DNA from: Nemertoderma westbladi
Lineage: Eukaryota; Animalia; Xenacoelomorpha
Direction of reading: 5' to 3'
DNA length: 57,027 nucleotides
Assembly (NCBI GenBank): GCA_032718475.1
Contig: JAUCBJ010008351.1
Coordinates: 1-57,027, forward strand
Positions 11,231 to 53,173 of this stretch are shown one piece after another. Each line of letters starts with the position of its first letter. Positions within the stretch are counted from its first letter, which is position 1. The notes under the pieces were generated by a model. That model made no database searches, was not told the DNA's origin, and saw nothing but the letters and a program-made list of their open reading frames with translations. Made by a program: the position numbers and the translations under genes.

Positions 11231-11308
11231 CCGCTCCCAGAAAATGGGATTTGAGTCTATAAATATACAAAAATCACAGTTTCTAATATACGTAAATACT
11301 CTAAACAG

Positions 11309-14366: not shown

Positions 14367-15198
14367 ATCTGCTATCTGAGTTTATTAAGATTATAATGAG
14401 TTTATGTTTAGGCGAGCGGGCGTCGCTGCCTACTTTTCTTTGCCCCCGGACAGTGGGATTCTCAGCGCCGATGTACCGTCGTCGCGGTGTTTACGCCAAC
14501 ATGTAGCAACAGCACGACAACGATAACCAGCACAAGTCACTCCACTGTCCGTCCCAAAGGCTTGGATCCACTTAGGTTCTTTCTATAGGAGAGTTGGGCT
14601 ACTTTCACAATTGCGACTAGCTACTGTAAACACACTTTAGCAGTAACATTCACCTATAAACGCACAAATTCCACACAACTGCCACCAATTGTACACATAC
14701 AGGCCATTTGTCCGTTAGTCAGTGCCTTCCAGAATGTCACGTTATTACTGTGTATCCTTGGATACTAGCAGTGTGCTATATTCTCTATGCCATGCAATGG
14801 GACAAGCTTTCTATTGTTCTTTTAACTTGCTTCTAATTCTAGCGTGGGTGTTGCTATGGTGACATTATGGAATGCTAGCGGTAGAATTAGGGTAATTCTC
14901 ATGCATACAGATCTGGGATGCTATTTAATAATAATTCTTTAATTGTCAATATTCTCTTTATGCATGATTTTATTATTTTTATCGGCTATTGACTATATGT
15001 TGGAGATTCTCGCACTCTAATACACTCAATAGGATGAATCTCCGCTCCCATGATCTATTAATTAATGGAATTTTGGGAATATTATAAATTGTACAAAATG
15101 ACAATTTATGAAATTCATTTTAAAATATGAATTTAAATTTATTCCCGTGAATTTTATTATTATTGACACATTATTATGTTAAAATTGACACAATTTGA

Positions 15199-15480
15199 TT
15201 CCAGAGCAGGTCTGGGGACATAGGATCCTTAATTCTATGAAAATTGTCTTTTAAGAGTATCGGTAAGTGCTGCGATATCTTAATTGACTAGAAATTTTAA
15301 AGGATCTGAATTTTACAGATTTTAATAAATATTAAATTAATATTTAAGATGGGCACCGATTTATTCCAGAACTTGTCTGGGGACGTTAACCTCTGATTCT
15401 AGAATTTGTCTTTCAAGTATATCGGTGGGTGCCGCGATATCTTAATCGACTAGAATTACAGATGGTCAAAAGGTTTAACA
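15199..15480. repeat. Imperfect direct duplication (~165 bp period) in the E1 non-coding region
   Basis: TTCCAGA..GTCTGGGGAC...TATCGGT..GTGC.GCGATATCTTAAT.GACTAGAA occurs twice. Confidence 0.7.
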
Positions 15481-16006
15481 GATTTATTTGCATTTTACGC
15501 TACTGTTAGAGGGACATCACGCTACTATATGTATTATTTAATATAAGGTAGAAGAGCAATATCGCACGAAGCAATGTCAGTGTGAAGAGGCAAGTCGTTT
15601 CCAAGGTCTACCCAGAGCTTGGTTTAGCCGAGACACGAGGATCTGAACTTTGCATTCCTAATACTCTGCCTACCAATAATACTTGAATATAGTAGTGGCT
15701 TTATTGTACTTTAATAAGTACGGACATTTCATCTTACTGTAGTCACGTATTTATAATATGATACGGACAGTAAGGAAAGAAAAAAATAATTATTTCTCGC
15801 CGTCGCACTAAATATATATTATAAGTAATTACGTACGTAATAAACACTAATATATTGCACTAATCTACTAAATAATCACTAAAATAACATTCTACTAAAT
15901 AAAATTAAAGAAAACGATTATAATAAAATTACATAATAATACATACATAAATATAAAATAAAAACAAATATAAAATGATATAGTCACACGCCCACTCCAT
16001 ATGTTA

Positions 16007-18250: not shown

Positions 18251-20604
18251 CGTTGGAAGAAATAAACGTTGAATTTGACGATCTCTCCCACTTTGACCGC
18301 TTGGCGGGCTTCTGTTCTAGCCATCTGACGCGTAAAGCTTTCTTGGGCCATCGTGTTATTTAATATCGAATTATCGGTATATAAATTTCCTGGATTATTA
18401 GCAGGTCTATAGGGAATATCATTAACAACAGGTTTATAATCACCCTTAATAGGGTTTGCTATAGGAGTTTCTACTTCACTAGCAGTATAGATGCGTGTAG
18501 GCTCCACACCTTGCGCATGTAATACTTCAGACCTAACAGGTTGACACAATGTTACAGGGGGTATTGGTATGCCCTTTTGGATATTGACTAATTTGTCGCG
18601 TTCTAGGGCGATACTTTGCTGCACTTCTTGCAACTCTGCTATACCTTCCCTTACTGTTCCCTTAAGTTGGTGGACAGTCTCCTGCATCTGTCCGAGCAGG
18701 AGATTCATCCCCCGCCGTCCCTCCTCTACCCACTCGACCGCCGAAGCGGGAGTCGCCAACATTGTAGCGGGCCGACGCTGGACGACGGGAGACAAATCTT
18801 TGATTTCTCTCTCTGCTATCAGGACAGGGATATTCTCTTGGACTGTTCTACCGGGTACAGGCAGTGTAGTACTATGTAAAGGGAATTTAGAGTTAAGCTC
18901 TGTAAGTACAGGGGTCTCTAACACAGAAGTGACTTTGGGAACGACAGGCCTAATTATTTCAGGCTCATCAACTATTGTAGGGAGTCTTTTGACCTGAATA
19001 GTTTGGTATGCGGGTTCCATACTACCTAAGTCTGTGCTAGCTAACTGTCTTCTAACAGCTGGGGGCAAATCAGGCAATTTGTGACGGTGAGATATTTTTC
19101 TACGCCTGCTTAGACAAGATCTATTTCCTCCGCCTTCAGGATCGGTGGTTTCGCTTTCCTCCGATGATGTGTATCCCTGGCGTTTGGGAGTAGATCGTCT
19201 CATCATCTGCATTTGACTAGCAGTTAACTGTTTATTTATGTTATCTTGCGTCTCTTGCAGATTTTCCAACTCCAGTTGGGTAGTCTGCTCAGAGGCTCTC
19301 CGTTCTGCTTCTGCCACTGCCTTTGCTGCTTTTCTTTCTGCTTCTGCTTCTGCCGCCGCTGCCTTTCTTTCTGCTTCTGCTTCTGCCGCCGCTGCCTTTC
19401 TTTCTACTTCTGCTTCTGCCATAGCCGCCGCCCTTTGTTCCTCTATCCGTCTTTTCTTTACTCGTTCTTCTTGGACTCTAGCGAGGCGGAGTTTTTCATC
19501 AAATTCTGCTTGGTTAGCAGCTAACATTTCAGCATCGATTGAGTCTAACACACGTTGGGTTCCTTCACTATTAGGGGAAAGTCCAGACAGTCGTCTCCTC
19601 AACTCTTCGTCTCCTAGGAATCGCTGATAGTCGGACAGATAAATGTCTATGGCGTCTCTCGTTCGTGGTCTCTCGGCGGTCTCTTCGCCTTCCACTTGAG
19701 GAAGGATGGCATCGGTTGGTTCTTCATAGGTTAGTCTCTCAGACAGCTGGGATTTCCACTGGTCCGTTTCTTGTACTTTGAGACCTACCCGCTGGAACCA
19801 AGTTTTGACAGCAACCTGCAGCGACGTGTCCTGTCTTCTTTTGGAAGTTTCCTCAAAGGCTGATAGGATTAGTCGAATGCGTAGGGTTCTTTCGCGTACT
19901 TGGTATAGCAGTTCTTCTTGCTCTTGAGGTCCTTGGGGTTGTCGAAACAGTTGTTCTTCTAATCGCTCTAAGGAGCCGAAGAATCCCTGCACATATCCTG
20001 CTGCCGACCTCTTCCAAACAGCTGGATCCATCGTATCTTTAGCCACTCCCATCCTGTGTATATCTTCCCAAGTAGCCTCGGACAGATCTAACGGGAGTCC
20101 GGGTCCGGGAAAGTTCCATTGTGACTCGACAATAGACATCAATTCTTCCCTGGTGTATCCCGCATAATTATCTTGGGTCGCTCGCTTATTTCTCGCCCAG
20201 TCGGCTTGATGTTCCTCCACCGCAATGAATATAGTAGTTAGCACTGCGGCAGGAAGGGTGAGAAGGGGGTCCGAGTAGGCTGTAGCCACCATCTGCACTC
20301 CGCGTTCGGGGGTCAGCTCTACAGTATCCGAACTACTGGAGCTATCGGGTCGCTGGGAACTAGGTTCTTGACCAAGATGTTGCTGCGATAGGACAGCTGC
20401 CTCTTGGTTCCGTTTGACCTGGGCCCGAGTGCCTATGATGGACCTATGGTGGATTAGCCTAGGGTCTGATACTAGTGGAGGGATGACCTTTCTTGCAGTA
20501 GGAGGTAAACTGAACTCCTTTCTTAATCGCTCCACACTCCTATCTGTGTCACAGATGGTTGTATCGATTAGACTGTCTGACAGGTTTTGCTGAGTGTCAG
20601 ACAT
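18142..20604 (-). CDS. gag: E1 Gag N-terminal half with coiled-coil/Ala-Glu repeats; frameshifted at ~18235-18272
   Basis: 820-aa ORF after a 2.2 kb leader, with (AEAEAERKAAA)n repeats. It joins the next ORF across an imperfect 16-nt tandem duplication. Confidence 0.85.
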   Translation of the reverse strand: MSDTQQNLSDSLIDTTICDTDRSVERLRKEFSLPPTARKVIPPLVSDPRLIHHRSIIGTRAQVKRNQEAAVLSQQHLGQEPSSQRPDSSSSSDTVELTPERGVQMVATAYSDPLLTLPAAVLTTIFIAVEEHQADWARNKRATQDNYAGYTREELMSIVESQWNFPGPGLPLDLSEATWEDIHRMGVAKDTMDPAVWKRSAAGYVQGFFGSLERLEEQLFRQPQGPQEQEELLYQVRERTLRIRLILSAFEETSKRRQDTSLQVAVKTWFQRVGLKVQETDQWKSQLSERLTYEEPTDAILPQVEGEETAERPRTRDAIDIYLSDYQRFLGDEELRRRLSGLSPNSEGTQRVLDSIDAEMLAANQAEFDEKLRLARVQEERVKKRRIEEQRAAAMAEAEVERKAAAAEAEAERKAAAAEAEAERKAAKAVAEAERRASEQTTQLELENLQETQDNINKQLTASQMQMMRRSTPKRQGYTSSEESETTDPEGGGNRSCLSRRRKISHRHKLPDLPPAVRRQLASTDLGSMEPAYQTIQVKRLPTIVDEPEIIRPVVPKVTSVLETPVLTELNSKFPLHSTTLPVPGRTVQENIPVLIAEREIKDLSPVVQRRPATMLATPASAVEWVEEGRRGMNLLLGQMQETVHQLKGTVREGIAELQEVQQSIALERDKLVNIQKGIPIPPVTLCQPVRSEVLHAQGVEPTRIYTASEVETPIANPIKGDYKPVVNDIPYRPANNPGNLYTDNSILNNTMAQESFTRQMARTEARQAVKVGEIVKFNVYFFQRLFLSTNITKIAYKTLYYLTERNLGSSSSAWKDLPS

Positions 20605-21939
20605 GTTTAGCTATACAGTTGAATGTCTACTGCTATATTTTCAGTTAAAGCAAGTCTAGTAATTCAGTATAACCGTTCGCCTAGTACCGTTAATTTATTA
20701 CAGTATATTAGAATACCGGTATACACTTATAGTATATATAAGTATTGTAAACTAGGTTTGTCACAGGGTACCGGTATATAAATTTAGCACAAATATATAT
20801 AAATATATAATAGGCCTATCGTGAATACCGGTATACAGCTTGCACTTATAGTATATATAAGTATAATTATGAACTAGAATTAATCACAGAATACCGGTAT
20901 GATTTTAGCTCAAATTTATAGAAATAAATATAATAAGCCTATGGTAAATACCGGTATGTCAATTATTTTAAAATAATTGAATTTCTGAATATTTTAGGGT
21001 TACTTGGTTACTTTAACTTACTTTATTACCGTTATTTAAGCAGTAGTCCAACTGATATTGAGACCTAGTTGTTGTATGGCAGGCCTACTATTTATAAATC
21101 GTTTGAGTTGATTTATAATATTTATATACCCGTTTAAAAGGGGTTTTGTCAATATTTGAAATAAATGTTATTATTTCTGGGTTTCACTACACAGAAGCTG
21201 TACGCTCTCAGTGAAGTGCTATTTATTGGACACTAAAACAGATAATTCTAATTTACCTAAGTTACTTAATACTACAAATTACTTATGATATGGTGAGATT
21301 AATTCTCTACTTAAAACAACAAAAAATATTACGTACGAAATTTTTAGGGTAATTTTACAGGAAGTCTACAAACCAGCCTAACAAAGGGTTAGAATTCTGG
21401 TTATTACAACAGACAGGATACTACGGTATTTGAGAATAATAAGTAGTAGTAAATATATTGCACTGTCCAGATAGGAAAATACCACCGCCTGACGACCTAT
21501 AGCCGTATCGCTATAGGTACTACGTTATGTATCACGGAGTGTTCCTACCTAGAAGTTAATAGAGCTAACGAATGTGCCTATCAACCACTTTACAACACAA
21601 ATATACTGCCTACACACTAATTACTTTCGGAAAGCACTGTACACTAAACCCTAAATTAGGTACAAGTACTGGTACAACAAATAATCAGTAGTTAAATATA
21701 CTTTAACAGTTAAAAGAACCACGGCATCTGCTGGAGTGACCGGAGCACAAAGTCACCAGTCTTGTCCTACGCCAAGCAGCCCGTGTAGTACCGGGGTTAA
21801 TTTAACTATAACGGTATGTATAACAAGCACAATTACTGTAGGAATAAACTTGGGGACATGAATGTTGCGAATAATCGCATAAACTCTGAATAATAAATAT
21901 TACGCTACCCGTACAGAATACTCAAACAAATACAAACCA

Positions 21940-22465
21940 AAACGCTGGCAGACTACCACCAAGTCTAAATAAACTACCGTACGTGTAGATTCTGAAATGG
22001 TTAGTTAGTATGCGTTCTAACACGGTAGTACGACTTATTCTTTAAGAGGGGATTGACCTTACAGCTATGGCTGCCCCAACTTACTAACGGCACTTTATCA
22101 GACAAACTCTACACACGCAGCAATCTCTTCAGTACTAATAATAGCTAGACAACAATCCAGCCTACAAAATATCTGAGTAATAACTATTACGGTACCTGAA
22201 CAGATCACACAAACAAACACAGGCTAAAACGCTGACAGACTACGATCAAGCTTAAATAAACCACAGTATATGCAGATTCTGAAATGGTTAGTTAGTATGC
22301 GTTCTAACACGGTAGTACGACTTATTCTTTAAGAGGGGATTGACCTTACAGCTATGGCTTCCCCAACTTACTAACGGCACTTTATCAGACAAACTCTACA
22401 CACGCCGCAATCTCTCCAAACCCAACAACAGTCAGACAGCAGCTCAGCCTACAATTATCTGAACA
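21940..22465. repeat. ~287-bp direct duplication in the E1 5' leader (also present in E3 at ~54610-55130)
   Basis: AGATTCTGAAATGGTTAGTTAGTATGCGTTCTAACACGG...CAATCTCT occurs twice. Confidence 0.9.
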
Positions 22466-22818
22466 ATCTGAGCAGACTTACACGTCTTCAGCTCAATATT
22501 AACTTACTAGGAAATAAAACCGACAGAAATAGGTAAAATCTCAATAAAAAACCAGGGCTGCAGTCCCTGATTAAATACTAAGACCTACCGGTATACAATA
22601 ATCAAAATCGAATAATACTAATGTACTTATACTGGAAGTACCGGTTAGGACAGTTGGGCCTACAGAAGTACCGGTTCTGGCAGTTGGACCTACGGACCTA
22701 CAGCAGTACTGGTTCTGGCAGTTGGGCCTACTGACCTACAGAAGTACCGGTTCAGGTTTACCGGTCAGCCGGTACTTTCAACTTTATTGGTTACTGCAAT
22801 AAAGTCAATAACTGTTAT

Positions 22819-24075
22819 TGTACGCGCTTTTGGAAGACCTTTAGCAGTTTAACCTGCCAAAATTTATATGTCTTTTGGTTTATAAATATACTTTAGAAGA
22901 TGACAAATATTTAATACCAATAAACACAACATTAGCAGAAGCCAGCCTAGTGCGCGTCCATTCACCCGCTGGATATTCCCGGGAGACTGGATTCTGAGGG
23001 CTTAGATTATTATTGCAGTGAAACCTACTGTATTATTCGATTGATCGTTAATAAATAATTTCTGACTAATATTATTCACTTTCGGGAAATATTAACAGTT
23101 CCTTTAGGACGTGGCGCTCTATCTAAGTAAACAGAGATATGACTTACACTAATCACAACGGTAAGTCGGTAAGGCTTATGATTCACGTATGAGGCGCATT
23201 CTTTAGGAAATGCTTAGTTATCAGTCACAATCATGCACACTACCGGCAACACACAATACTGCTCACTAATTTGCCGACTGTCAATGAATTTTATCATATA
23301 TAGAGAGAACAGCAACGGACCAATGTAGTGCTTATCAAATAGCATTAAATTCACTACAAACCACAATAATATAAGTCGCAATCGCTATATATAACCCGTC
23401 TCTCTAACCTGTAGTGTATCAAGAAAATTGGGAAATTTGGGTTCTTTATAGATGTTCTCCAAATAATATTCAACCAAAACACAACAGTAAACAGCATTAA
23501 GACAGTAGGTTAAGATATGATATGACAACAACACAAGTAATGATATGTGATATATGACATAGACTGGACTGATAACAGTTATACGCTCTATAATCTTGAG
23601 CCTACTAATGTTTCTTCTAAAGTATGAAAACGAGTTGACTCTAGAGCCAGTGTTCCTGGCCTAGATAGCAACAACACAACAGTATCACAAAAAACAGTAA
23701 GACTGAACGCTCTAGCATGATCTGCCCAAAAGCTCCACATCTACAGAAAAAATCGCCCTGATTGGTCAACCGAACCATGAGAGAACAAAGAAACAAAGAA
23801 ATGTCGACGTGGCAATATCAGCTGTTAGCCGTCGTCATGGTAGCGACACTGTTTTCAAGAGTATCTAGCTTATCACTCACGAGATTGCGGATTATGTCCT
23901 CTAAAGTACAAATCTAGAAGAATGACTTTTATGTCCGTTAAAACACCTATAATGGTACCTTGCGGGCGAGGGGAATATATATATAGTTAGAGAGCCTTTT
24001 AGAGTATTCCAGCGCCTGGGGGGAAACTGGATTGCAAAGCAAAGGGGCCAGTTATATCCCACAGAAGCTTTTACA
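22819..24075 (-). repeat. E1 5' LTR
   Basis: Direct repeat of 9973-11230, followed by the TSD CCTTT. Confidence 0.95.
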
Positions 24076-33796: not shown

Positions 33797-35062
33797 TGTA
33801 CGCGCTTTTGAAGACCTTTAGCAGTTTAACCTGCCAAAATTTATATGTCTTTTGGTTTATAAATATACTTTAGAAGAAGACAAATATTTAATACCAATAA
33901 ACACAACATTAGCAGAAGCCAGCCTAGTGCGCGTCCATTCACCCGCTGGATATTCCCGGGAGACTGGATTCTGAGGGCTTAGATTATTATTGCAGTGAAG
34001 CTTACTGTATTGTATTATTCGATTGATCGTTAATAATTAATTTCTGACTAATATTATTTACTTTCGGGAAATATTGACAGTTCCTTTAGGACGTGGCGCT
34101 CTATCTAAGTAAACAGAGATATGACTTATACTAATCACAACGGTAAGTCGGTAAGGCTTATGATTCACGTATGAGGCGCATTCTTTAGGAAATGCTTAGT
34201 TATCAATCACAATCATGCACACTACCGGTAACACAATACTGCCCACTAATTTGCCGACCGTCAATGATTTTTATCATATATAAAGAGAACAGCAACGGAC
34301 CAATGTAGTGCTTATCAAATAGCATTAAATTCACTACAAACCACAACAATATAAGTCGCAATCGTTATATATAACCCGCCTCTCTAACCTGTAGTGTATC
34401 AAGAAAATTGGGAAATTTGGGTTCTTTATATATGTTCTCCAAATAATATTCAACCAAAACACAACAGTAAACAGCAGTATAATAATGTATATTGAACCGA
34501 TAATGCAAAACTGAACGGAGTTGCACTGAATTGTTATGAATTGTGAATGGATAACAGTCATACGCTCTATAATTTAAGCCTACTAATGTTTCTTCTAAAA
34601 GTATGAAACGAATTAACTCAAGAGCCGTTGTTCCTGGCCTAGACAGCAATAACAACAAAGTATCAAGAAAAAACAGTAAGACTGAACACTCTCCTTATGA
34701 TCGACCGAAAAGCTACACGTCGACAGGAAAAATCGCTCTGATTGGCTCAAGCCAAACAAAGAACCATGCATCCAATGGCTGTTTCCATGTCAGCAACCAG
34801 CTGTTAGATGTCGTAATATGAATCATCACGGCTAAGCTATGAAAGGTATTTGTCGCATTGCAGGTTTTTTTGCCTTACCATGTCCGCTAAAACACGTATA
34901 TAGCAGAATGACTTTTATGTCCGTTAAAACACCTGCAAAGGTACCTTGCGGGCGAGGGGAACATATATACAGTTAGAGAACCTTTTTAGAGTATTCCAGC
35001 GCCTGGGGGGAAACTGGATTGCGAAGCAAAAGGGCCAGTTATATCCCACAGAAGCTTTTACA
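33797..35062 (-). repeat. E2 3' LTR
   Basis: Same termini as the E1 LTRs and highly similar at both ends, but diverged at ~34480-34900. The same PPT GGGAGCGG is adjacent. Confidence 0.92.
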
Positions 35063-35140: not shown

Positions 35141-38100
35141 TTAGTCTTTCTTGCGCGGACGGCGTTTACGCAGTTTTTTAAAGCTAGCAAGAGTCCTTTT
35201 CTCTTTGGGGCGAGCCACTTTACAAGGAGGGCTATAACTCCTGGGTGAAGGGTGCAATATGATTGCATCAGAGGGTGTAGGATTATGGTCGGTGTATCCG
35301 CCAGTCGAAGTACCGGGTTGATTGACATCAACGTCAGGTGAGAGGGGTCTAACGGCTTTGAGAGCTCGTTTCAAGACAGCCGCTCTTACGGGTCCTTTAC
35401 GAGTGGTCTGAACGAGGGCCGTGGGTGGACCATAGGCAGTTAGAAACTTCCGGGGTTTAATGGTCCTTTCCAACTCGCGTTCGCGGGCTCGGTATTCGTA
35501 AGGCCTTCGATGTACTTCCTGCAACTCAGGGTGTGAGTTAACAAACAAGTCTCCATAGTCCGGATCCTGACGGATATAATTGATTAAGTTATAGGAATGA
35601 AGGTCGCTAGGATTAACACTCCTGAGAAATTTGCGTACGAATTTAGTTGAAATACATTCTCCGACGCGCTTCAGTAGCTCGTAACTTGATATGCGTGATT
35701 TCTGTTCACCAGAAGCGAATAGATAAGGATGGAACGCATAAACTCCTTCGTAAGCGCGTCCGGGATAATAGCGATGGCGTGAATCACAATGTAAATCAGC
35801 GTTCGCTTCCCAAGCTCTGATGTAACGCAGTGTGATCATTTCATCTACGCTTTCCAAATCGTGATTAAAAGGGCAGTCGAAACTAGCATGTCCCTTTAGT
35901 TGACAATGGTGACATTGAGTCATAAATTGAGGGCAAACCGCAAAGATATGCAGGTTATTGAGTCTGCAATATGCGCAATAAATTTCCATAGCCGGTTGTT
36001 CTTGGAAATAGGAACAGCGGACGTTGGTGTCCATGGGCGTATCGTGGTCTCTCGATGCGCATAACCGACAACGTTGCCTAGAAACATAGTTGGCATGTCG
36101 ATAATCGTACGCAGTGAGACACTGTGGACCTTGATACCATTCTATGATATAATCGTTATCGCTGTTCCGGGGCGCGATAGGCTGAATCTCTTCAGATTCT
36201 AGACATATTGGTTCGTCTTCCAAGTGCATAGCTGAAGTGGGTGTGTCTGTCTCTTCAGGTGGACCTATTGTCTGAATTTCTACGACAGAATAACCTGTGG
36301 GGATTCGAGGTCTTTGTATAACAGAGGAGTGCAAGTTCGATATACAAATCTCTTTGAAAATGGCGAATCCAGCGCTATCCAACTTCTCTGCAGCTGAGTT
36401 TCTTAGGCTGAGTTTGGTCAAAGCGCGGTCTTTAAATTGGCTATCCACGTTGCGAAACGGGGTTAAAAATCGCCGGAAACATTCGAAACGGATGAATTTA
36501 TTATGTTCATCTAGCTTAGCGAGTTTTGTCCCAAGTATTAATGGATGGGCGCGTATAGTACGACTGCACACATCGGCTAGCCAACCGGCAAGTGCGGTGT
36601 TTTCAAAGATCGTGTATATAGCTAAGGAGGGACGGAGTGGAACACTCATGAAGCTATACACGGCGCCAGGTGCGGTCAATGGTCCATCAAAGTATAATCG
36701 AGAATAATGGTCTCCGTATACCTGTTGATAGTTAATGGGATTTCCGACTTTGAAATTCCATCCGTATTCCTGAAAGGCAAGATGTCCGATGGAAGTTCGT
36801 TGCACCTTGGTAATGTTGCTAGACGTATTAGCATACATGGTGCGGAAGAAACCTCGACCTTCTGCCCAGGGAGCAATCAGCTGAGTATCAACGAAAGGGT
36901 ATGGAATGTCCTCCATATTCCGAAAGTCGTTTTGGAGATCTCCATAAACAGCTGAGCCGATTTTAAGGATTCTTTCGTTGAACAACATCTCGAGTACGGG
37001 CTGGGGTAATATCGATCCATCGATGCCCATGGCCGGTTTGCGTTCGGTGTCAATGACGTAACGCTGCGCGAGTTCGAATTGTCCATGTCGGAGATTCTTT
37101 TGTGTTTCGGTAAGAGTTTCAAAAGAATAATCAATCAAGTCGGAACACGCTCGAGTAAACACATGGGTAGAACCTAATCCGCGGATGTGTATCATGCGCG
37201 TAGTTCCTAGCTCTCCGACCGGAACGCTACCTTCATTATCGTAGGTGACAACTCCATACATCTCAATAACATTAAGAGTTTCATTCCACTCCTTGGTGGC
37301 GTTCTCTAGGGTCATCCCTACTGGATGCCACAAGGTGGCGCATTGGTTAGCGTCAGGGAGATCACTATACTTCATATGCCGAGTGGTATACGTCTCTACA
37401 TTTCCAAATCTTTGTATTTTCTCTTCTTCAAATAATACATCTAGATTCCAATGGACTAATCGAGTTTTAATAAATCCATCGAGGTTATAAGGAGGTTCTA
37501 TATCTTTCTCGATTCGAGAAATGTTATATGGTTTTCTAAATGAGTTTACCTTTACTAACTGATCCAGATGTTTCTGCAATTGTTCGAGTTCGACAATGTC
37601 TAGAGGATTTATTAGTGGTAGAAACTTTAAATCATGTGTCGGGTCTTCTGGTTTTACCATATAATATTGAGTCAGATTAACGTAATAAGGGTGGTCTTTA
37701 ATCCCGTAAAACGAGTTCTGTAAAGGTCTAGCGCGTATGTTGACATCGTGTACCATACGACGGACAAGATCCGCTCGATTGTCCGGAGGTTCAACGAGTA
37801 TACCGTCAACATGAGCGGCCTCGATCGGTGGACGCTGTAACATAGGGGCGTCAGCGATAAGGTTTTGCGATCCTGTACTGATATCAACCGGTTGAGGTTG
37901 TATCGTCGCGAAGAGCTTGTCTCCGAAATGTGGAATCATAGAGGGATGACGAACGGTTTTAGAGTAGAGGTCCGTCATGAGGATTTGAGCTTCAGGTTGG
38001 GCTAAAGCGGCTTCTTCTCTTTCTTCCAGTTTCGTGTGTTTCTCTTCGATTAGATTTTCTTCCGCTTGTCTCTGTAAGCGTTCATCTAAAAATTCTTGTA

Positions 38101-38245
38101 GAGAATACGTGCGTCCAAGCTCGATGTCTTCCTCGAGGTTTTGGATTTCTCTATCGAACTGTGGCAAGGCTAACTCCTTCACCGATTGGACTTGTTGTTG
38201 TAATTTACGTTTATTGGAAGAGACGGTAACAATACCTGCAATATC
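35141..38245 (-). CDS. E2 accessory gene A: coiled coil + DEDDy (WRN/EXD/Mut-7-like) 3'-5' exonuclease-like domain + 3 CCHC knuckles + unnamed domain + basic tail
   Basis: VVTYDNEG (ExoI-like), LPQPVLEMLFNERILKIGSAVYGD (ExoII-like), FVDTQLIA, SIGHLAFQEYG and PLTAPGAVYSFMS (degenerate ExoIII). The frame is open to 38245 with no ATG for ~90 codons. Confidence 0.75.
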   Translation of the reverse strand, partial: DIAGIVTVSSNKRKLQQQVQSVKELALPQFDREIQNLEEDIELGRTYSLQEFLDERLQRQAEENLIEEKHTKLEEREEAALAQPEAQILMTDLYSKTVRHPSMIPHFGDKLFATIQPQPVDISTGSQNLIADAPMLQRPPIEAAHVDGILVEPPDNRADLVRRMVHDVNIRARPLQNSFYGIKDHPYYVNLTQYYMVKPEDPTHDLKFLPLINPLDIVELEQLQKHLDQLVKVNSFRKPYNISRIEKDIEPPYNLDGFIKTRLVHWNLDVLFEEEKIQRFGNVETYTTRHMKYSDLPDANQCATLWHPVGMTLENATKEWNETLNVIEMYGVVTYDNEGSVPVGELGTTRMIHIRGLGSTHVFTRACSDLIDYSFETLTETQKNLRHGQFELAQRYVIDTERKPAMGIDGSILPQPVLEMLFNERILKIGSAVYGDLQNDFRNMEDIPYPFVDTQLIAPWAEGRGFFRTMYANTSSNITKVQRTSIGHLAFQEYGWNFKVGNPINYQQVYGDHYSRLYFDGPLTAPGAVYSFMSVPLRPSLAIYTIFENTALAGWLADVCSRTIRAHPLILGTKLAKLDEHNKFIRFECFRRFLTPFRNVDSQFKDRALTKLSLRNSAAEKLDSAGFAIFKEICISNLHSSVIQRPRIPTGYSVVEIQTIGPPEETDTPTSAMHLEDEPICLESEEIQPIAPRNSDNDYIIEWYQGPQCLTAYDYRHANYVSRQRCRLCASRDHDTPMDTNVRCSYFQEQPAMEIYCAYCRLNNLHIFAVCPQFMTQCHHCQLKGHASFDCPFNHDLESVDEMITLRYIRAWEANADLHCDSRHRYYPGRAYEGVYAFHPYLFASGEQKSRISSYELLKRVGECISTKFVRKFLRSVNPSDLHSYNLINYIRQDPDYGDLFVNSHPELQEVHRRPYEYRARERELERTIKPRKFLTAYGPPTALVQTTRKGPVRAAVLKRALKAVRPLSPDVDVNQPGTSTGGYTDHNPTPSDAIILHPSPRSYSPPCKVARPKEKRTLASFKKLRKRRPRKKD

Positions 38246-39654
38246 CTACTGTAAAGTTTGTGAATCAAATAATAAATCCGACCTTCTCACCAAAACAGTA
38301 AACTCTAAGTAAGCGAATATATTGCAGTATCGATCTCTTATAACCGTTGAGGCAGAAAACAGTCTACGAGCAGACAAACTTCGATAAAACAAAATCCCGC
38401 GCAGCGAATCCTAAAATCAGGCTGACTCACTGACGGACTAAGGGGCTCGTATACTTTGCCGCGGTGTGATTTATATGGTTGGGCGAAAGGGACGCTAGCT
38501 AGGTACAGAGGCAGAGATTTGGAGATGTCTAACTAGCGGGCAAAACACAGTAAGGACGAAAGTTAATTTTATATATTTTGAGGTGTAAATAATTTCTAAC
38601 GCGCGTGTGTTAATTCTGAACGGTCAAAGCAGTTTTGCTCCTTCACATATATAATTACTGGGTACGGTGTGCATTTTACGAATATTCTAATTTTGTAACT
38701 TGTAGGTCCAATACTTACGAATGATAAGGTTCCTTCCCCTCTTGCGTATTTCCAGGACTCAAATTCAGGCATAAGGTTAATGCTACGCCCAGAATTCGGC
38801 AATTTTAATTTACCAGGCCCCTAATACTAAGAAGAAATGTGTTAGTTTACTACAGTAGGCCTACAGTTACTAATAGCTATCCTGGCTCTTATCTAGAATT
38901 TTAGTCACCTAGGTAGGCTGGGTAACTTCCTATCAAGACGTTGGAGGGGACACGGTAGATGTTAGTATATCCCTAATAGCCTCAATTTATTTGCGCCTAG
39001 TTGTAAACTGCCCTACCGCATGAACGGTACAATCCCAATTCAGGTGAAACACAGCAACCCTCCTAGCCTACAAGTTCTAATGCAATGGACACCGTTGTAC
39101 TACAAATAGTCGCAAGCGCACCTGCACTTAGCAAGAGTTAGGCGTACAGTTTGCTGCACCCTACCAATGTGTATGCTTCGTACCGGTGTGCCTACGTCCT
39201 ATCTGCGTACTAATATCTCTGCCTGCGCTCTCCCCCCCGTAGGAATGTGAAGGTCTACTGTGGTTTTTTCCTGAATCAAGACAGTACAGTCCCTAAGATG
39301 TAATTTTAGGCTTACAGCGTGTCACTACTTCTACCTTTTGATCTTTGGTCTTACGCTTAGGTAGCAAGGCGTCGAACGCTGTCTAACCTTTCAGGCGATG
39401 GGCGAATAACTGAGATGATATTGCGGGTTGTCTCTTGTCTACATTCCCGTGATGTTTCCCGTTCATTGCTGCGGCCCGATCTCTAGCCGGCCATCCTGTT
39501 CCTAAAGGTGTTCACCGTAGTGAATCATGGTGAAAAGAAAAGCAGATAGCGGTATTTCTGAATTTATTGCAGATAATAATACAAAAATGTAATCTGAAAC
39601 TAATGACAGAATAAACAATATTGAATAATACAGAAGATTAGAATGAATAAAGAT

Positions 39655-39830
39655 AGATAACTAATGAACAAATCGCACCTTTATATAGCAAATTTGTGCT
39701 GCAATCAATCGAGAAAATTCTCGATTGTTCTATAGGTTCTAACAGGTTTTTTAAATATAGCTATTGGTCCAGCTAATATATAACTTGCACGACATTGGTT
39801 ACAATCTAATAACTGCAGTCTCATTGGTTA
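39655..39830 (-). promoter_or_regulatory. Putative internal Pol II promoter (3x CCAAT + TATA) for accessory gene A
   Basis: CCAAT on the minus strand at 39827-39823, 39798-39794 and 39767-39763 (~30-bp spacing). TATATAAA at 39687-39680, with an Inr-like TTAGTT ~25 nt downstream. Confidence 0.5.
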
Positions 39831-39907
39831 ATCTAGGTACAAACAAATGCAATTTAATTTGTAGCGGTCAATTTAAATGAGTTGAAATTCTGCACAAAAA
39901 ATAATTC

Positions 39908-39982
39908 GCACTTACTAGGATTCGAACTCAATACCTACTACACATATAATTTCCAACGATCTACCGACTGAGCTACTGAACC
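39908..39982 (-). other. tRNA-like sequence with Pol III A and B boxes (pseudo-tRNA or SINE head)
   Basis: GGTTCAG-TAGCTCAGTCGGTAGA...GAGTTCGAATCC. The acceptor and anticodon stems do not pair well. Confidence 0.55.
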
Positions 39983-40299
39983 ACTTGACTAAACGTCGTA
40001 CAATAGATATAATAAATACAAATGAGGACTCAAAGTAATCTTTTACAAAGTTAATTCGAATAAAATAAAATTTTGAAAATCCACGGCATTTAGGGAATAT
40101 AATTCTATACCGCTCCATGAAAACAGGATATTATCGTGCATAAAATATACGGTTTTCACCAATAATCAATCAAACTATAGAATACTTAGGGCGTACTTAC
40201 ATATTTACAAATTAAATTTCAAACAATACTTCCTTTCTACATAATGATTCGATACAAAATAATTACAAATTCAAACTTTACGTAGTTAAGGCTTTACTA

Positions 40300-41003: not shown

Positions 41004-42488
41004 TTATCGCTTAGTTGATCGAGCCCTGCCGCGTCCTCGAAAACTGCGCACAGGTGACTTTGCTCGCGATATGGGACTTGTGGGGCGAGTCACTGGTTTC
41101 GTTTGGACGTTGAGAGACGGTGCGACTATTTCCTCGCAAATTCGTCTATTTGGCATCCCAAAACCTCGACCGATTCCTCGTGACCGATCAGTTGTCACTA
41201 CAGTTGGTAGAACGTCTGGGAACGCGCGAGAAGCGGACGACGCAGACCCAAGAGCAGCTTGCGCCCCCTTTTGATCAGCTGGTGTATGTCCCGATCCTCC
41301 TGTTGGTTCTCTAGGAAGCGATACCGTATCCCGAGTAATTCGAATGGTCGGCTCGACTCCCTTGCATTCTTCTATATTAATAGACTTCTTTAACTGTTGG
41401 CCCACTTTCTGGACCTGTATGATCCTACCCTGTCCGTCCTCCCGAGGGTGACGTGCAGACGGCGCGACCGGAGTGGCTGGTATATTCGTCGCCTCTAGGA
41501 CCTCCTCTTCCTCGAATACGCTCGCTCGTATACGTTTATGGTAAAACGCGGCTCGGTACGCCCATGCGACGGTTAACCAAGCTCCTTTATTCCGCTTTTC
41601 AGTTCGGAAACGATCGAATTCACCATACGTGATGCGATTAACGACTTTCTGAAAATTCCACGTGTTTTTGTTATCCGGGTGAATCTGTAGTAGATACTCG
41701 CGCACTACTCGGAATCCGCTGTCGTGGGGCAAAATATCGACAACCTCGATAAGTTCGTCATATTGGGGCATAGCGGAGATGTATCCTTCCGACATCATCG
41801 TTTGGGGATTTACCGCCCAAAATCCAAGATGCGCTCTCATCGGAAACCGTCTTCTTTGTGCCGATACATGTTCGTCGGCTAAATCTTCCCACTCATCGAA
41901 TAATTTCCTCACGAGTTTTACAGATTCGTGTTCATAAGGTATGTCTCTTAGTTGGCATTCAGATGCTCGATGCCCTTTTATATTGCAATAAGTACATTGA
42001 GCCATAAATCTCCAGCAAGTATAAAAGGTATGAGACCCTTGATCTCCACACCATCCACAGATTAGCTGAGTCGTAGTAATGTGCTTTCCACTGCACTTTG
42101 TCATATGATGTCCAGCGACGCCACATTTACCACACATCGTATTGGCAGGGTACCACACTCGTTCGTATATAAGATCTCCAATCGGTCGAGCGCTTCCTCC
42201 CACACTATAATCGTAATCATCTGGATCTATGGGTTGGTAGGTTTCTGAAGGTTGTATACAAACTATAGCATCTGTTGCTTCAAGTTGTCGAATCTCCGTC
42301 TGAGATTTCTTCGGGAGGTTCCTTTCTATCTCAAGAAGTTCCTCTAAAGGATCGTCAGCGATCGTAGTAGTTACTTCGAAATCATCACCAAGGTGACCGA
42401 TAGGCGCGCGCGTCTGCCGTGATTCATCCGTAATCTCCACGATACGTTCTCCTTCATAGGGTAACATAGTTGTTGATGGTTCGAACAC
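41004..42488 (-). CDS. E2 accessory gene B, C-terminal part: 3 CCHC knuckles + unnamed domain paralogous to gene A, RG/RS-rich basic tail
   Basis: CGKCGVAGHHMTKC, CGWCGDQGSHTFYTC and CTYCNIKGHRASEC. WEDLADEHVSAQRRRFPMRAHLGFWAVNP aligns to WEANADLHCDSRHRYYPGRAYEGVYAFHP in gene A. Confidence 0.75.
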   Translation of the reverse strand: MFEPSTTMLPYEGERIVEITDESRQTRAPIGHLGDDFEVTTTIADDPLEELLEIERNLPKKSQTEIRQLEATDAIVCIQPSETYQPIDPDDYDYSVGGSARPIGDLIYERVWYPANTMCGKCGVAGHHMTKCSGKHITTTQLICGWCGDQGSHTFYTCWRFMAQCTYCNIKGHRASECQLRDIPYEHESVKLVRKLFDEWEDLADEHVSAQRRRFPMRAHLGFWAVNPQTMMSEGYISAMPQYDELIEVVDILPHDSGFRVVREYLLQIHPDNKNTWNFQKVVNRITYGEFDRFRTEKRNKGAWLTVAWAYRAAFYHKRIRASVFEEEEVLEATNIPATPVAPSARHPREDGQGRIIQVQKVGQQLKKSINIEECKGVEPTIRITRDTVSLPREPTGGSGHTPADQKGAQAALGSASSASRAFPDVLPTVVTTDRSRGIGRGFGMPNRRICEEIVAPSLNVQTKPVTRPTSPISRAKSPVRSFRGRGRARSTKR

Positions 42489-43012
42489 CTCGCCAATATC
42501 GGTTCGGGATTTTCCTTATTCAAACGCATCGGAATCGCATTTCGTTGTTCGCGCATACAAGAACCGCATTGATAATAAAGTTTATAAACTGAAAATGCTT
42601 CCTTGGTTTCTCTATCGTCCCCTCGAGTTCGTCTGTAAAGATGCATTCCATCAAATTCATCTCGTACCGCGGGCATAGGTTCGTGCGCCTTCAGGTATTG
42701 CATGGTATGATACAAACGACTAATTTCAGTATCGGGGTCTTCGCTAATGTCTCCCGTATCACACAAAGCGTCGTACGGGTAAAGTTCATTGAAGGTTTTG
42801 CGCAAACTTTCGATTCTTTCATTTAATGCGTTTTGTCTTCTCTTTAATACATTTGAGTCATATTTAGTTCTCGCGAGTTTCGCTGTACTTTCCGATAATT
42901 CCTTTATACCGAATATAGTGTAGTCCTTGGCTCCAAATCTTTCGAATGGCGCTGCTGCCTCCTCTTGGATATCATATCCCCATCTCGGCTCTCCTTGTAT
43001 CCCTTTCTCCAT
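42371..43012 (-). CDS. E2 accessory gene B, probable N-terminal part (overlaps the next ORF; frameshift near 42490-42520)
   Basis: ATG start, coiled-coil-like segment and a CxxC. The downstream ORF begins at GTG with its frame open only back to ~42515. Confidence 0.55.
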   Translation of the reverse strand: MEKGIQGEPRWGYDIQEEAAAPFERFGAKDYTIFGIKELSESTAKLARTKYDSNVLKRRQNALNERIESLRKTFNELYPYDALCDTGDISEDPDTEISRLYHTMQYLKAHEPMPAVRDEFDGMHLYRRTRGDDRETKEAFSVYKLYYQCGSCMREQRNAIPMRLNKENPEPILARCSNHQQLCYPMKENVSWRLRMNHGRRARLSVTLVMISK

Positions 43013-43675
43013 AATTAGGGGTGTAGTTACATAATCATTACTACTAGAGGGAATACAACAGAGTTTGTAGTTAGTTGTGAGGAGACGTGAGAGTTTCGTC
43101 TGCCCTTTGGGCTCGACAACGCTCTAACCTCCTACCCATAGCCTAAGATCTAGGGTTTCTTTAATGACACGCTGCTTCTTATCTAAAATTTTTTGCCGAA
43201 ATAAAAAACGAATTTGGGCTAAACTGGCTGTGAGTCTAAAATACTCACCTTTTGATCCCAAACTATTATCAGAAAATAAGCAGTCAAGAATTAGTAATAA
43301 ATATAGGGAAGTCTATTTATTTGACGTAACTTATTGAAACAAGACCGTGTAAAATTTAATTAAAATTTTAAGAAAGGCTCGCAAGTCTTCCTCTCTTGTT
43401 TCTCTAATTTTAAGTTCCACCCGACTGTACCCTGAAATCTATTCACTGGAGAAAATTTTAAAAAATTTTCAAATCCAAATGGATTGTCTAAAATTTCGAA
43501 AATGTCTCAATATTGTGAGTTCCAAGTAGAATTCCATTTCTTATACCTACAAATCCCGCTCCTATGTGACACATAAGGGTACTACCCTCAATGTTCACAT
43601 ATAAAGACAATGGAATTCTACCGCTGTCCTTACTACAGTGTACAGGTACGTGGAAATCTATTTGTAAACTCCTAA

Positions 43676-46600
43676 TTATTTACTAATATTAGGTGGAGAT
43701 TTGTAGTCTCCAGACTCGTTATGAGTCTCTTCAAGAAGTACGAGACGTTGAGTAGGTCTGTCAACTGTACGACCGTCAATTGTCCGTACCGTCACAGTTC
43801 TTGTCACTCCATCCATAGATGGATGTGTGGCTAAAATTACACCTGTTATCCAGAAGCGTCTTTTTAGATTCACTTCTGCTAACAGCACGTGATCTCCCGG
43901 CTTTAATACGCGGGTATTATTGTACCAAGTTGTTCTGGCAGAAATAGAGGGCAAATAATGGTTTTGCCATATTTCCCAGAATTTGTTAGCCAGTAGTTGC
44001 GTGATTTTCCACGCTTTTATACCGTAGCTATCGCTTTCCATTGGAATAGAAATAGGCGTCAATATGGTCGGTGCCTGCATTAGCAGGTGTGCCGGTGTCA
44101 AAGCAAACTGAGATTGTTTGTCATCGGGTACTAATACTATTGGTCTAGTATTTAGTATTGCCTCGATTTCAACAAACAGTGTTGTCAATTGGTCGTCTGT
44201 CAATATGTGGTTTACTGGAATGACCTTTGCCATTGCCGTTTTGATAGATCTAATCAATCTCTCCCAGACTCCGCCTCTCCATGGACTATCTGGAGGATTA
44301 AACTTCCAAACAATCTTGTGAGGTTGTAGTTCGTTCGAGATTTGATCATGATCTAATTTCTTAAAGGCTCTAGCAATCTCATTTCGAGCACCAACAAAGT
44401 TTGTCCCTTGGTCTGAGTACAAGCATTTTACTAGTCCGCGTCTGGCGATAAATCGCCGCAATGCTAGTATAAACGCGTTGGTGGAAAGATCCATCACACG
44501 TTCAATATGAACTGCCCTACTGGACATACATGTGAAAATCAGTCCCCAGCGTTTTACTAGTATACGTCCACGTTTCGTATGTATGGGACCAAAGCAATCA
44601 ATTCCAGTCTCTGTAAAAGGTGGTCTGAATGCTTGAAGTCGTGCTTGTGGAAGTTCACTCATTTCTTGGGTACCTATTCTAGAATGTACCTTTTTACAAA
44701 TAATACACGTACGTGTCACTGAACTTAACGCTTTACTGGGTCTAATTAATACAAATCTTGTACGTAAGTAAGAAAGACAGTGGTGTCTTCCAGCGTGTTT
44801 CAGATGTAAATGTGCGTCCAGTATCATTGCACGTTGTAGTTCGTGATGTTGCGGTATTATTATTGGGTATCTAAAGTTTGTGTTAAAGTCAATGTTTTGA
44901 AGCCGAGATTTATGACAAATTAAGCCATTATAAATTATCGGACTCCAACTCAATATTGGTGACGACTTTATTGGTTGACCTTGATTTATAGATGTGAATT
45001 CGCGCGCGAAATATCGCAGTTGGTAATGGCGAATTAATTTAATCTCACACCTGTCAATCTCAGTCAATGTAAGCCGACGTGTGAAGTCTCGTTTGCCTTT
45101 AACGTATTGTACAAAACGTACAATCCACGCTAATTTTCGGCAAGCGTTTGTCCAAGAATCTGTTAGGTTTACAATACGGTCGACGTAAGTATTTGTGACG
45201 TCATCAGGTAAGTCAATGGAGAATTTGGAAGGTTTTGATTTACTAGAAGGGCCCACGGGTCCGCCGGTAAGTATTCCCTTGTTGACTGTTGATCCGTCTG
45301 GGTCTACAAGTAATTTGTCCTTCTTCGTCTTCTTACCTTGATTGTCACTACTTTGTAAGTCGATCGTTAATGGTGGTTTGAACTCTATGGGGTCAGTGGG
45401 TTTCGGTAAACTTATTTTTCTGCCGACATTAATCCCAGGTCTCACCATAGGTTGCAAGTTCGGTATGTCTCTTGAGCGCAAAGTAACACCTGTATTTACA
45501 TTAGCGTAGGTACTACCCACATCTGTAATACATGAGGTTTCACCGTGCTTATGGTTACTCAAGTGTGTCAAAATTGGTAGTTTGTCAATACAAGGCCGCT
45601 CCAATAGAGAAACTGCGGCTTTACTGTTTGTCAATATGTTACTAGTGTCTAGTAGAACATTTTGTGACATGTCTGGTAAAATGTTTCGCGGAACATCCGG
45701 CGAAATATCTAGTGACGTGTCTGGCAAAACGTCTGGTTGACCGTCTAGTAACGTGTCTGGCGATACGTCTGGTAACGTATCTGGTTGTTTGTCAATAGAA
45801 GGCCGCTCCAACAGAGAAACTGCGGCTTTACTGTTTGTCAGTATGTTACTAGTGTCTGGTAGAACATTTTGTGATATGTCTGGCAAAACGTCTGGTTGAC
45901 CGTCTGGTAACGTGTCTGGTTGACCGTCTGGCGATATGTCTGGTGTAGAAAGGCTCGCAAGTCTTCCTCTCTTGACCTTTGAAGTTATATCCTTCCATTT
46001 CGCCTTCGGTTTCTTCTTAAGTTTGGCCGCCGTTGTCCTTTTCTTTGCCTTCCCCTTTTTTGGTTTCTTGATTTCGGCGTCCTTAGGGATAGTGTTAGAC
46101 TTGTTGTCATATAGTGGTGGCCAATTTAGTGTTGATCTTTGTAAGAATTGAGGTCCGTGTTGCCAAAATTCTTTGTTCTCCGGTTTACAGAATTCCTCAG
46201 GCATCATTCCTCGCGACGCAATATCGGCTGGGTTTTGTGGTCCGGGACAATGTCGCCAATCTTCTTTTATTGAACGGTCTAGAATTTCTGCGCGACGGTT
46301 AGCTACGAATGTCTTGAATTCAAGTGTGTCGTTATTTATGTAAAATAAAACCAACGTCGCGTCAGTCCAATAAAATATCTGTAAACTTGACTGTAGTTCT
46401 GTCTGTATGAGGTTCACGATGGTGGTTGACAGGGTTGCGGCTTGTAGCTCAGCTCGTGGTGTCGTCATATACTTAGTAGGCATTGTTTTCGCCTTAGAAG
46501 TAATGAGCGAAACATCGAATTCTTCTGAGTCTACTTGTCTGCGCAAGTACGCTGCCACACCAAAACCGTTGTCACTAGCGTCGGAAAAACAGTGTAATTC

Positions 46601-47672
46601 CAAGTTGTCAGGAAATGTTGTTTGTAATGGAAAGTAGACTCTGGGTATGGAATAATCCTCTAGCGAAGATAATTCTGCCTCCCAGGTCTTCCATAAGTCC
46701 ACTTGGTCTGATAAGATCGGCTCGTCCCATGTCAGTCCATCCTTCCAAATACTGCGCATATAAATGCGGGCTTGCAGTATTATTGGACTGATGAATCCTA
46801 ATGGATCAAACAATCGGCTCAATTTTGACAAGCATGATCTCTTTGTCAGTGTGTTTTCTTGACTGTCCAGTCTCACCTTCACTCGAAAGTTGTCTGTGTT
46901 TGGGTCCCAAAAGAGCCCCAACACCTTGGTCGTCAGTAGTGGTTCGAACTCTAGGTCTATGTCACCACCTCCACGCTCAGTCGTTCCGAATGAGTCTACT
47001 AATTCGGCACTGTTTGAGGCGAATTTGGTGAGGTTAAAACCTCCGCCCGCTAAGCAGTCCCATAATTGATGTGCTACTGTTGTAGCACGTTCTACTGTGT
47101 CGCAACTCTGTAATCCGTCGTCGACGTAAAAGTCACGTTCCACAATCCTAATTATCTCTGGGTCATACAGGTGTTTCTGATCCCTAGCGGCTTGTTTTAG
47201 GGCATACATGGTACAGTTTGGGCTGTCCCTGGCACCGAAAACGCGAACTTGCATTTGGTAAGTCGCTGGTGGTAGACTTAAGTCTCCTTCCGGATACCAG
47301 AGGAACCTCAAACTGTCTTTGTCTTGCTCTAACGCTCTCACTTGGTGAAACATAGCTTCAAAGTCACAAGTAAAAGCTACTTGACGCTGACGGAAGCGCA
47401 TAATCACCCCCATAAGATAATTATTCATGTTTGGTCCATCCATCAACTCGCTATTGAGGGACATTCCCTCAAACAGAGCCGCACAGTCATTGACTACGCG
47501 TACTTTATCTGGTTTGTCGGGGTGTCTCACATAGTGATGTGGCAGGTAGTATGTCTGGTTAGTCACTATCTCTGGGTTAGTCATTCGGATAGCGTATCCC
47601 TTAGTCAAATACGTCTCCATCTGAGTGTTGTACTGCAGATGGGCTTTCTCGTCCTTTAATAGACGTAAACGT
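43676..47672 (-). CDS. pol: E2 Pol: reverse transcriptase, RNase H, long low-complexity insert, integrase
   Basis: YLPHHYV, DFEAMFHQV, FGARDSP, FYVDD, FDPLGF, LHCFSDAS, PRAELQAA, WTDAT, NPADIASRG, HHCC zinc finger, GIDCFGP, SDQGTNF, GGVWERLI and RPTQRLVLLE. Confidence 0.97.
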
Positions 47673-52593: not shown

Positions 52594-52629
52594 AAGGTAT
52601 ACATCCTCCAGTTTTAAGAATCCACCCCG

Positions 52630-53165: not shown

Positions 53166-53173
53166 ATGTGTAC

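Follow-up and report, generated by a model that had tools for sequence, protein, structure and literature searches.

In the env-carrying BEL/Pao retrotransposons (roo, Cer7/13 and Tas), an extra open reading frame (ORF) lies between pol and the 3' long terminal repeat (LTR). Third ORFs with a DEDDy exonuclease motif, given as DEED, are described for the Juno, Vesta and Athena/Terminon elements of bdelloid rotifers (PMC5408684; PMC6431247). The canonical DEDDy active site ends in Y-x3-D, as in EXD2, for which D108, E110, D171, Y242 and D246 are listed (PMC6648332). The joining of such a nuclease to CCHC zinc fingers is reported for the RNase D of Trypanosoma brucei (TbRND; PDB 7C42/7C45), where the fingers are described as binding RNA and raising cleavage, in a combination described as very unusual (PMC7797062). 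The subject here is ORF4, a gene in a 57,027-nucleotide (nt) contig of the xenacoelomorph Nemertoderma westbladi (JAUCBJ010008351.1 of assembly GCA_032718475.1, positions 1 to 57,027, hereafter the window). ORF4 is carried by a BEL/Pao retrotransposon, family A element 2, is clearly under purifying selection, and encodes a protein that very probably has a DEDDy-type nuclease fold, joined to three zinc knuckles. The bdelloid elements supply the precedent for DEDDy-like extra ORFs that an earlier note, made from the letters of the window, had invoked. The features of ORF4 and its surroundings are as follows.

35141..38245, minus strand: ORF4, accessory ORF of BEL family A, element 2; a single stop-to-stop frame of 1034 amino acids (aa)
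36551..37273, minus strand: predicted 3'-5' exonuclease domain of DEDDy-like type, spanning roughly aa 325-565, its boundaries taken from the alignment with a remote homolog, P0001
35873..36070, minus strand: three CCHC zinc knuckles, CX2CX4HX9C (aa 726-744), CX2CX5HX4C (aa 757-771) and CX2CX4HX4C (aa 778-791)
35531..35848, minus strand: C-terminal domain, about aa 800-905, conserved but outside all known families, common to P0001 and to ORF3 of a neighboring element, followed by a basic tail
33797..35062, minus strand: 3' LTR of family A element 2, with a GGAGCGG resembling a polypurine tract (PPT) directly ahead

Residues are numbered here from 38245, the start of the stop-to-stop frame, in which ORF4 does exceed the 1000 aa claimed for it; from the first ATG, at 37978, the product is 945 aa. 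All motifs quoted in the earlier note are found in ORF4, and the acids that it labeled D315, E317 and D415 are real residues under shifted numbers, being D336, E338 and D436 when counted stop to stop (the shift of 21 corresponds to a GTG at 38182). The 89 codons ahead of the first ATG appear to be coding, as a helical and charged stretch, and two AG splice-acceptor-like sites stand at the start of the frame (38234-38251, minus strand); expression of ORF4 would come from a spliced message. ORF4 ends 79 base pairs (bp) from the LTR, which begins with TGT at 35062 after the PPT-like GGAGCGG, in agreement with the position just 5' of the PPT and 3' LTR that had been assigned to it. The highest hydropathy over 19 residues is 1.10, so that ORF4 has no transmembrane-like stretch and none of the anchor of an envelope protein, and its description as a non-env gene holds up.

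Evidence for an exonuclease domain comes from several weak and concordant profile comparisons. RNase D was the top model for ORF4 among 18,950 NCBIfam models (expectation value, E, 0.0045; aa 415-460), its 16.3 bits falling below the curated cut-off of 299 for what is a whole-protein model. An Atlas feature search returned 30 hits, 24 of which bear PF01612, with a score of 0.92, behind an unnamed cluster at 0.94. Alignment of the domain to Escherichia coli RNase D by hhalign gave 75% and an E of 2.5e-5. Furthermore, an RNase D profile built from 79 domains (80 loci, one dropped for its different offset) scored the real ORF4 domain at 11.5 bits and 1000 shuffled versions at 8.6 or less, and ranked ORF4 first of 537 frames in the window. 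A PHROGs search gave nothing meaningful. The DEDDy match proposed for ORF4 is thereby sustained for a DEDDy-like domain, with RNase D and PF01612 as the closest relatives rather than, specifically, the Nibbler, EXD or Egalitarian proteins that had been named.

The strongest support for a DEDDy-like domain is provided by P0001, a protein of 648 aa encoded on a 9.4-kb contig and the sole match to ORF4 among 1.84 billion protein representatives (E 2e-6). P0001 shares the layout of ORF4, with an exonuclease region, three knuckles and the C-terminal domain at about 29% identity, and the exonuclease domain of ORF4 differs by an insertion of about 35 aa after ExoI. In P0001, a D-x-E, a matching ExoII block, and a W-x-x-P-L-x6-Y-x3-E with an E-N-T continuation are found in canonical order and spacing; its own match to PF01612 is weak (E 0.2, 11.9 bits against a cut-off of 23.6). 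Word-index searches of near-length proteins with ORF4 aa 270-900 (2737 candidates) and with the ORF4 exonuclease region (951 candidates) yielded no new relative, the same search with P0001 aa 25-270 (1553 candidates) yielded P0001 itself only, and locus scans for relatives in metagenome contigs, viral contigs, prokaryote genomes and plasmids found nothing. The triple zinc-knuckle array had been correctly recognized, and a profile of the knuckles matched the nucleocapsid of retroviruses (E 0.004), Air2 and, at a weaker E of 0.011, PDB 7C45. All scores of an Atlas search with the knuckles and C-terminal domain of ORF4 were below 0.9.

Comparison with P0001 also bears on the identity of the active-site residues, which map to the following positions.

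37232..37240, minus strand: predicted ExoI, D336-N-E338
36938..36940, minus strand: ExoII, D436
36602..36616, minus strand: revised ExoIII, Y544-x3-E548, with Glu where DEDDy enzymes have Asp
36644..36658, minus strand: YSFMS (Y530-x3-S534), the disfavored ExoIII register, 14 aa upstream of Y544

D336-x-E338 forms the best ungapped block with the D-x-E of P0001 (14 versus 5), and D436 pairs with D130 of P0001 at a posterior of 0.99 and aligns with the ExoII Asp of RNase D. For ExoIII there is a choice between two P-L-x6-Y motifs, which lie 14 residues from each other in ORF4. The earlier note had taken YSFMS as ExoIII and the fourth acid as lost, a reading that P0001 disfavors: the YSFMS register scores -1 against P0001 and the YTIFE register 25, and E548, N549 and T550 pair with the E-N-T of P0001 at posteriors of 0.89-0.93 (0.89 for E548). 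A proline-free, helix-like run follows Y544, while in YSFMS a Pro-Gly precedes the Tyr and two prolines stand just after it. YSFMS was rejected as ExoIII on its block score. Neither register has the Asp of Y-x3-D, the residue being Ser or Glu, and ORF4 is for this reason classed as DEDDy-like, with a D-E-D-E quartet, rather than as a canonical member; a literature search for DEDDy enzymes with Glu in ExoIII showed none among the papers listed. Because P0001 and the helix-compatible sequence both point to Y544 and E548, an acid likely stands at each of the four positions, in a quartet of D336, E338, D436 and E548 with Y544. If the fold is as predicted, the product is probably catalytically active.

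A number of observations weigh against an active nuclease of this type. The profile matches span no more than aa 415-461, around ExoII, and cannot be counted as independent, and the Atlas hit has 163 common features, fewer than the 170 typical of true family members, with shuffled sequences reaching 0.9 in 4-10% of cases. The ExoI assignment has a posterior of about 0.09 in a gapped pair model with P0001, and MAFFT leaves ExoI unaligned. The reassignment of the active site depends on one homolog, P0001; with RNase D as the sole comparison, neither ExoIII register is ahead (4 versus 3), and one MAFFT mode prefers YSFMS. Moreover, a Glu in place of the Asp might weaken catalysis or end it. The Pfam and structure-model checks suggested for ORF4 brought no match and no usable fold: Pfam gave nothing on ORF4 itself, the domain and its two-sequence profile, used as queries against solved structures, found no nuclease, and AlphaFold produced no confident model either of ORF4 aa 216-648 from a single sequence (predicted local distance difference test, pLDDT, 30.8) or of P0001 with a 4-row alignment (pLDDT 29.4). 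Given these low-pLDDT models, the fold of ORF4 is read from profiles alone.

That ORF4 belongs to a mobile element is shown by a second copy within the window. The elements concerned are listed here.

9973..24075, minus strand: element 1 of family A, with LTRs at 24075-22819 and 11230-9973 that are 99.5% identical, and a 5-bp target-site duplication, AAAGG
53026-54284, plus strand: 5' LTR of subfamily A2, followed by the primer-site position at 54285-54296

Comparison of the window with itself revealed the last 592 codons of ORF4 at 13087-11309, inside element 1, with 98% aa identity. In both copies the gene precedes a PPT and an LTR. Element 1 is bounded by TG...CA LTRs and the AAAGG duplication, and has a gag/protease of BEL type at 20610-16007, with the BEL-type gag domain PF03564 (DUF1759) found by Pfam at 16010-18316 (E 9.3e-9). 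Because this copy of ORF4 lies inside an LTR-bounded element with a BEL gag, ORF4 travels inside a BEL/Pao family, A, and the BEL context given in the earlier note holds up. The pol of element 1 is almost wholly deleted, leaving a 50-aa remnant that is 44% identical to the BEL pol of a second family, B. The complete family A pol lies outside the window, and the assignment of a Peptidase_A17/DUF5641 pol to the family of ORF4 would depend on this remnant. Element 1 may be a recombinant. Its segment at 13100-16007 (minus strand), 2.9 kb without assigned content, includes an acidic ORF of 126 aa near 14370-13990 and has no match in the sequence ahead of ORF4 in element 2. This small ORF, at 14345-13990, was considered as a relative of the ORF4 N-terminus and dropped, the likeness seen by eye being matched by 78 of 500 shuffles.

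The two copies of ORF4 differ by 51 synonymous and 11 non-synonymous changes over the 592 codons, a ratio of non-synonymous to synonymous rates (dN/dS) of 0.057 (Fisher p 2e-24). Synonymous changes are in excess in all five sub-regions of ORF4 (synonymous/non-synonymous 4/1, 12/2, 5/2, 18/4 and 12/2), and 11 of 15 read variants in ORF4 are synonymous among the 40 variant places listed out of 1150. ORF4 is clearly under purifying selection. Beyond the window, copies of the ORF4 family are visible solely as short read contigs. Contigs from all four sequencing runs cover all 30 bins, and those of one run, X1, include 37,948 that align on 15 kb, among them tens of thousands of short variants, from which it follows that the family is abundant and diverse in its host.

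What such a protein does for the element can be approached from its two recognizable parts. The reading preferred here, and held tentatively, is that the ORF4 product acts on the element's own RNA as a 3'-5' exoribonuclease, metal-dependent and of the DEDDy/RNase D type. The four predicted active-site acids are kept, which suggests a working enzyme rather than a dead one, and RNA is proposed as the substrate by analogy with trypanosome RNase D, whose C-terminal CCHC fingers bind RNA and raise cleavage. If the enzyme is active, element RNA would rather likely be its main substrate. The three nucleocapsid-like knuckles would grip single-stranded RNA and the exonuclease domain would then trim RNA 3' ends, working in cis on the RNA of the element within the ribonucleoprotein particle. 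Possible tasks would be to clear away 3' tails that are unpaired or non-templated, or to finish a self-made primer. The earlier note had offered a silencing antagonist, an RNA localization factor and a fidelity factor as candidate roles.

An active exoribonuclease could alternatively be directed at the host, degrading or mis-trimming small RNAs or their precursors in the PIWI-interacting RNA (piRNA) or small interfering RNA (siRNA) pathways and so shielding the family from silencing. This is a possible if doubtful account of ORF4, to which the fold and the intact acids lend the same support as to processing of element RNA, and with which the abundance and diversity of the family in its host are compatible. 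Host DEDDy proteins, MUT-7 and Nibbler, are described as working in small-RNA pathways, and a silencing-related role has been raised for the bdelloid DEDDy ORF3s (PMC5408684). However, the profile matches of ORF4 are to RNase D and PF01612 in general rather than to MUT-7 or Nibbler, and nucleocapsid-like knuckles suit particle RNA at least equally well. Mature piRNAs, furthermore, are 2'-O-methylated at their 3' ends and resist many exonucleases.

It is unlikely that ORF4 retains the fold without catalysis, as an RNA-end-binding or transport scaffold comparable to EXD1, Maelstrom or Egalitarian. Dead nucleases usually lose several acids, whereas D-x-E, D and Y-x3-E are common to ORF4 and P0001 at 29% identity, and the pseudo-nuclease proposed in the earlier note was built on what is likely a mis-registered ExoIII. 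The features consistent with such an adaptor are the Ser or Glu, never Asp, at the fourth position in both registers, the tie between these registers against RNase D, the additional residues (about 35) after ExoI, and the existence of inactive DEDD derivatives that are reported to have kept RNA binding (PMC5408684).

A resemblance by chance, in which a conserved knuckle protein carries an unrelated N-terminal domain, is very unlikely. The absence of matches to ORF4 in Pfam and among solved structures, the low-pLDDT models, and the shortness and weakness of all profile matches are what such a resemblance would give; set against it, four methods converge on one clan, the RNase D profile passes its shuffle control, and P0001 has the three motifs in order and with canonical spacing, including W-x-x-P-L-x6-Y-x3-E. 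Also very unlikely is a DNA-directed role, in which a 3'-5' exonuclease proofreads or trims the ends of complementary DNA during reverse transcription or before integration, since the best named model is RNase D, such CCHC arrays mainly bind single-stranded RNA and the copies are diverse, even though PF01612 takes in polymerase proofreading domains and WRN, and EXD2 is reported to cut DNA in vitro (PMC6648332).

Among the tasks suggested above for an exoribonuclease acting on element RNA, the finishing of a primer can be compared with the primer-site region of family A. In elements of the Tf1 type, the cut that makes the primer is reportedly performed by the element's own reverse transcriptase (RT)/RNase H. 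The primer-site position of element 1 (22808-22818, minus strand) has no TGG of the kind that pairs with a transfer RNA (tRNA), and its 11 nt are exactly complementary to positions 494-504 of the LTR (23582-23572). In subfamily A2 the corresponding position (54285-54296, plus strand) likewise has no TGG, and 12 nt are exactly complementary to the homologous place in the LTR, at 53493-53504. The two primer-site/LTR pairs thus differ in their letters and agree in place, cross-pairing extending over only 5-6 nt, and control positions matching as long numbered 57 (element 1) and 17 (A2) of 102,106. The predicted duplex between primer site and LTR reaches about 20 bp when wobble pairs are counted. 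A free-energy control was not passed, with 88 of 150 random 24-mers equally stable for element 1 and 16 of 150 for A2, and the primer site of element 1 is nearly palindromic, so that support for self-pairing consists of the exact-length and position test. The partner stretch lies just after a TATA-like word and hence may belong to U3 rather than to the 5' end of the transcript. Self-priming by complementarity to the element's own LTR is put forward for family A as a candidate mechanism; among the papers listed by a literature search there was none on self-priming in BEL/Pao elements. A second pairing is predicted in both subfamilies between leader bases 13-36 (22783-22806) and LTR positions near 1051-1070, on the U5 side, at -16.6 and -17.9 kcal/mol (no control).

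From these observations a more specific, and quite unlikely, version of the RNA-processing role can be framed, in which family A dispenses with a tRNA primer and primes itself, and ORF4 trims the 3' end to the duplex of LTR and primer site. The knuckles would hold the RNA while the nuclease trims its unpaired 3' end back to the duplex, leaving a 3' hydroxyl for RT; a 3'-5' nuclease halted by a duplex would be well suited to finishing a self-made primer. If true, reverse transcription would here begin in a new way, by means of a dedicated enzyme that was captured and then passed down in BEL families as far apart as 21% identity between their Gag proteins.

The second of these families, B, lies immediately upstream of ORF4 and has the following parts.

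43676..47671, minus strand: BEL pol of family B, with Peptidase_A17 (PF05380, E 7e-42), integrase and DUF5641 (PF18701, E 4e-20), by Pfam
50776-52629: gag-protease of family B, separated from pol by a long interspersed element (LINE)
39509..40109, minus strand: 601-bp LTR of family B, with a PPT-like GGAGCGG ahead, TATA and AATAAA inside, and ACA at its end
41004..43123, minus strand: ORF3, accessory gene of family B and paralog of ORF4, 26% identical over knuckles and C-terminal domain (E 3e-20)

The adjacent gag and pol are likely not those of ORF4, since a separate LTR at 40109-39509 parts pol and ORF3 from ORF4, and both ends of this LTR are marked in one contig of run X1 by a joint from 40110 to 39508. 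The pol at 43676-47671 was rejected as that of ORF4 on its low identity with the remnants in element 1 and on this joint. Read depth differs between ORF4 and pol and dips at 39534-39650, features given no weight here. Because pol and gag of family B are only 44% and 21% identical to their counterparts in element 1, and because family B has its own accessory gene, GGAGCGG and LTR, the pol upstream of ORF4 likely belongs to a second BEL family nested there. One contig joint at 39503-39659, with 29 letters on its short side, hints that the family-B LTR is joined to the sequence following it in two or more copies; as evidence for a composite element in place of a nested one it is too weak to decide. 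ORF3 itself is broken at about 42460 (42459-42466), where contigs end from both sides with loose ends, and a 1887-nt contig continues for 1393 unlike bases, indicating a deletion of at least 1.39 kb. By position the deleted part matches the exonuclease region of ORF4, and it may have held an exonuclease domain.

Other insertions and genes surround these elements. The window does not include a 5' LTR for family B. The LINE at about 47660-50830 (plus strand), between the protease and RT of the family-B polyprotein, encodes an endonuclease and an RT with stops, has a (GAAT)n tail, and by eye is flanked by a 7-bp duplication. Within the family-B pol, a long low-complexity insertion of 12-bp-unit repeats (PDxxPD) at 45575-45944 lies in frame between RNase H and integrase. 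A short LINE RT fragment (52630-53025, minus strand) joins the truncated family-B gag to the A2 element on the opposite strand. An intact, intronless gene for NAE1/APP-BP1, the regulatory subunit of the NEDD8-activating enzyme, stands among the repeats at 26734-28446 (minus strand; E 6e-140 against its human counterpart).

Enzymatic third ORFs of LTR elements were previously known from bdelloid rotifers, and the ORF4 family places them in BEL/Pao elements, in two distant families and under purifying selection. What appears new is the setting in BEL/Pao, the joining of the exonuclease-like domain to a knuckle array and to a further domain of no known family, and the existence of a paralog in a distant family; the selection measured on ORF4, the Glu in place of Asp, and a self-complementary primer site in the same elements appear new as well. 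Among the papers listed by a literature search, whose coverage excluded Repbase Reports and most of the subscription journals, none described an exonuclease ORF in a BEL/Pao element. The question addressed is why retroelements carry 3'-5' exonucleases, whether to process their own RNA, to make a tRNA-free primer or to counter silencing. The exonuclease and CCHC layout, with a logic known from TbRND, offers an expressible protein and sharp predictions, and the Glu that occurs naturally as the last residue of the DEDD set, and is kept in P0001, is of interest to nuclease enzymologists.

Of the known systems, the bdelloid ORF3s are alike in being non-env third ORFs after pol with an RNase D-like DEDDy domain, in their description as lacking transmembrane or coiled-coil envelope features, and in the auxiliary role in RNA 3'-end processing proposed for them (PMC5408684). 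They differ in that ORF4 is hosted by BEL/Pao, in its motif, D-E-D-E(y) as compared by description with the reported DEED, and in the size of ORF4, which at 945 or more aa also holds three CCHC knuckles and another conserved domain. ORF4 is under strong purifying selection, whereas the near-neutral variation given in that report was measured for env- and GDSL-type ORF3s only (PMC5408684). None of the protein searches with ORF4 or P0001 brought up the bdelloid sequences. In the Tf1 and Tj1 elements, as in family A, the primer-site position is described as complementary to the element's own LTR and not to a tRNA (PMC4600332, PMC6317226); self-priming is known there from Ty3/gypsy chromoviruses and proposed for some plant copia elements, and these are described with no accessory exonuclease. 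Unlike the env-carrying BEL/Pao elements, which have their extra ORF in the same position, ORF4 has no membrane anchor and offers enzyme-like and RNA-binding domains in place of a fusogen. With the PF01612 clan (WRN-exo, EXD2, MUT-7, Nibbler and RNase D) ORF4 shares the order of ExoI D-x-E, ExoII D and ExoIII Y-x3-acid, and departs from it in its final Glu, in its spacing (98 versus 61 aa from ExoI to ExoII and 112 versus 75 aa from ExoII to ExoIII) and in scores below every curated cut-off. TbRND, finally, has the same succession of a 3'-5' exonuclease domain and a tandem CCHC array, and is reported as a host mitochondrial enzyme with 4 fingers and a 28-aa linker (PMC7797062), in contrast to the 3 knuckles, the roughly 160 aa between domains, the extra C-terminal domain and the mobile context of ORF4; as only the knuckles matched (E 0.011), the two layouts are likely convergent.

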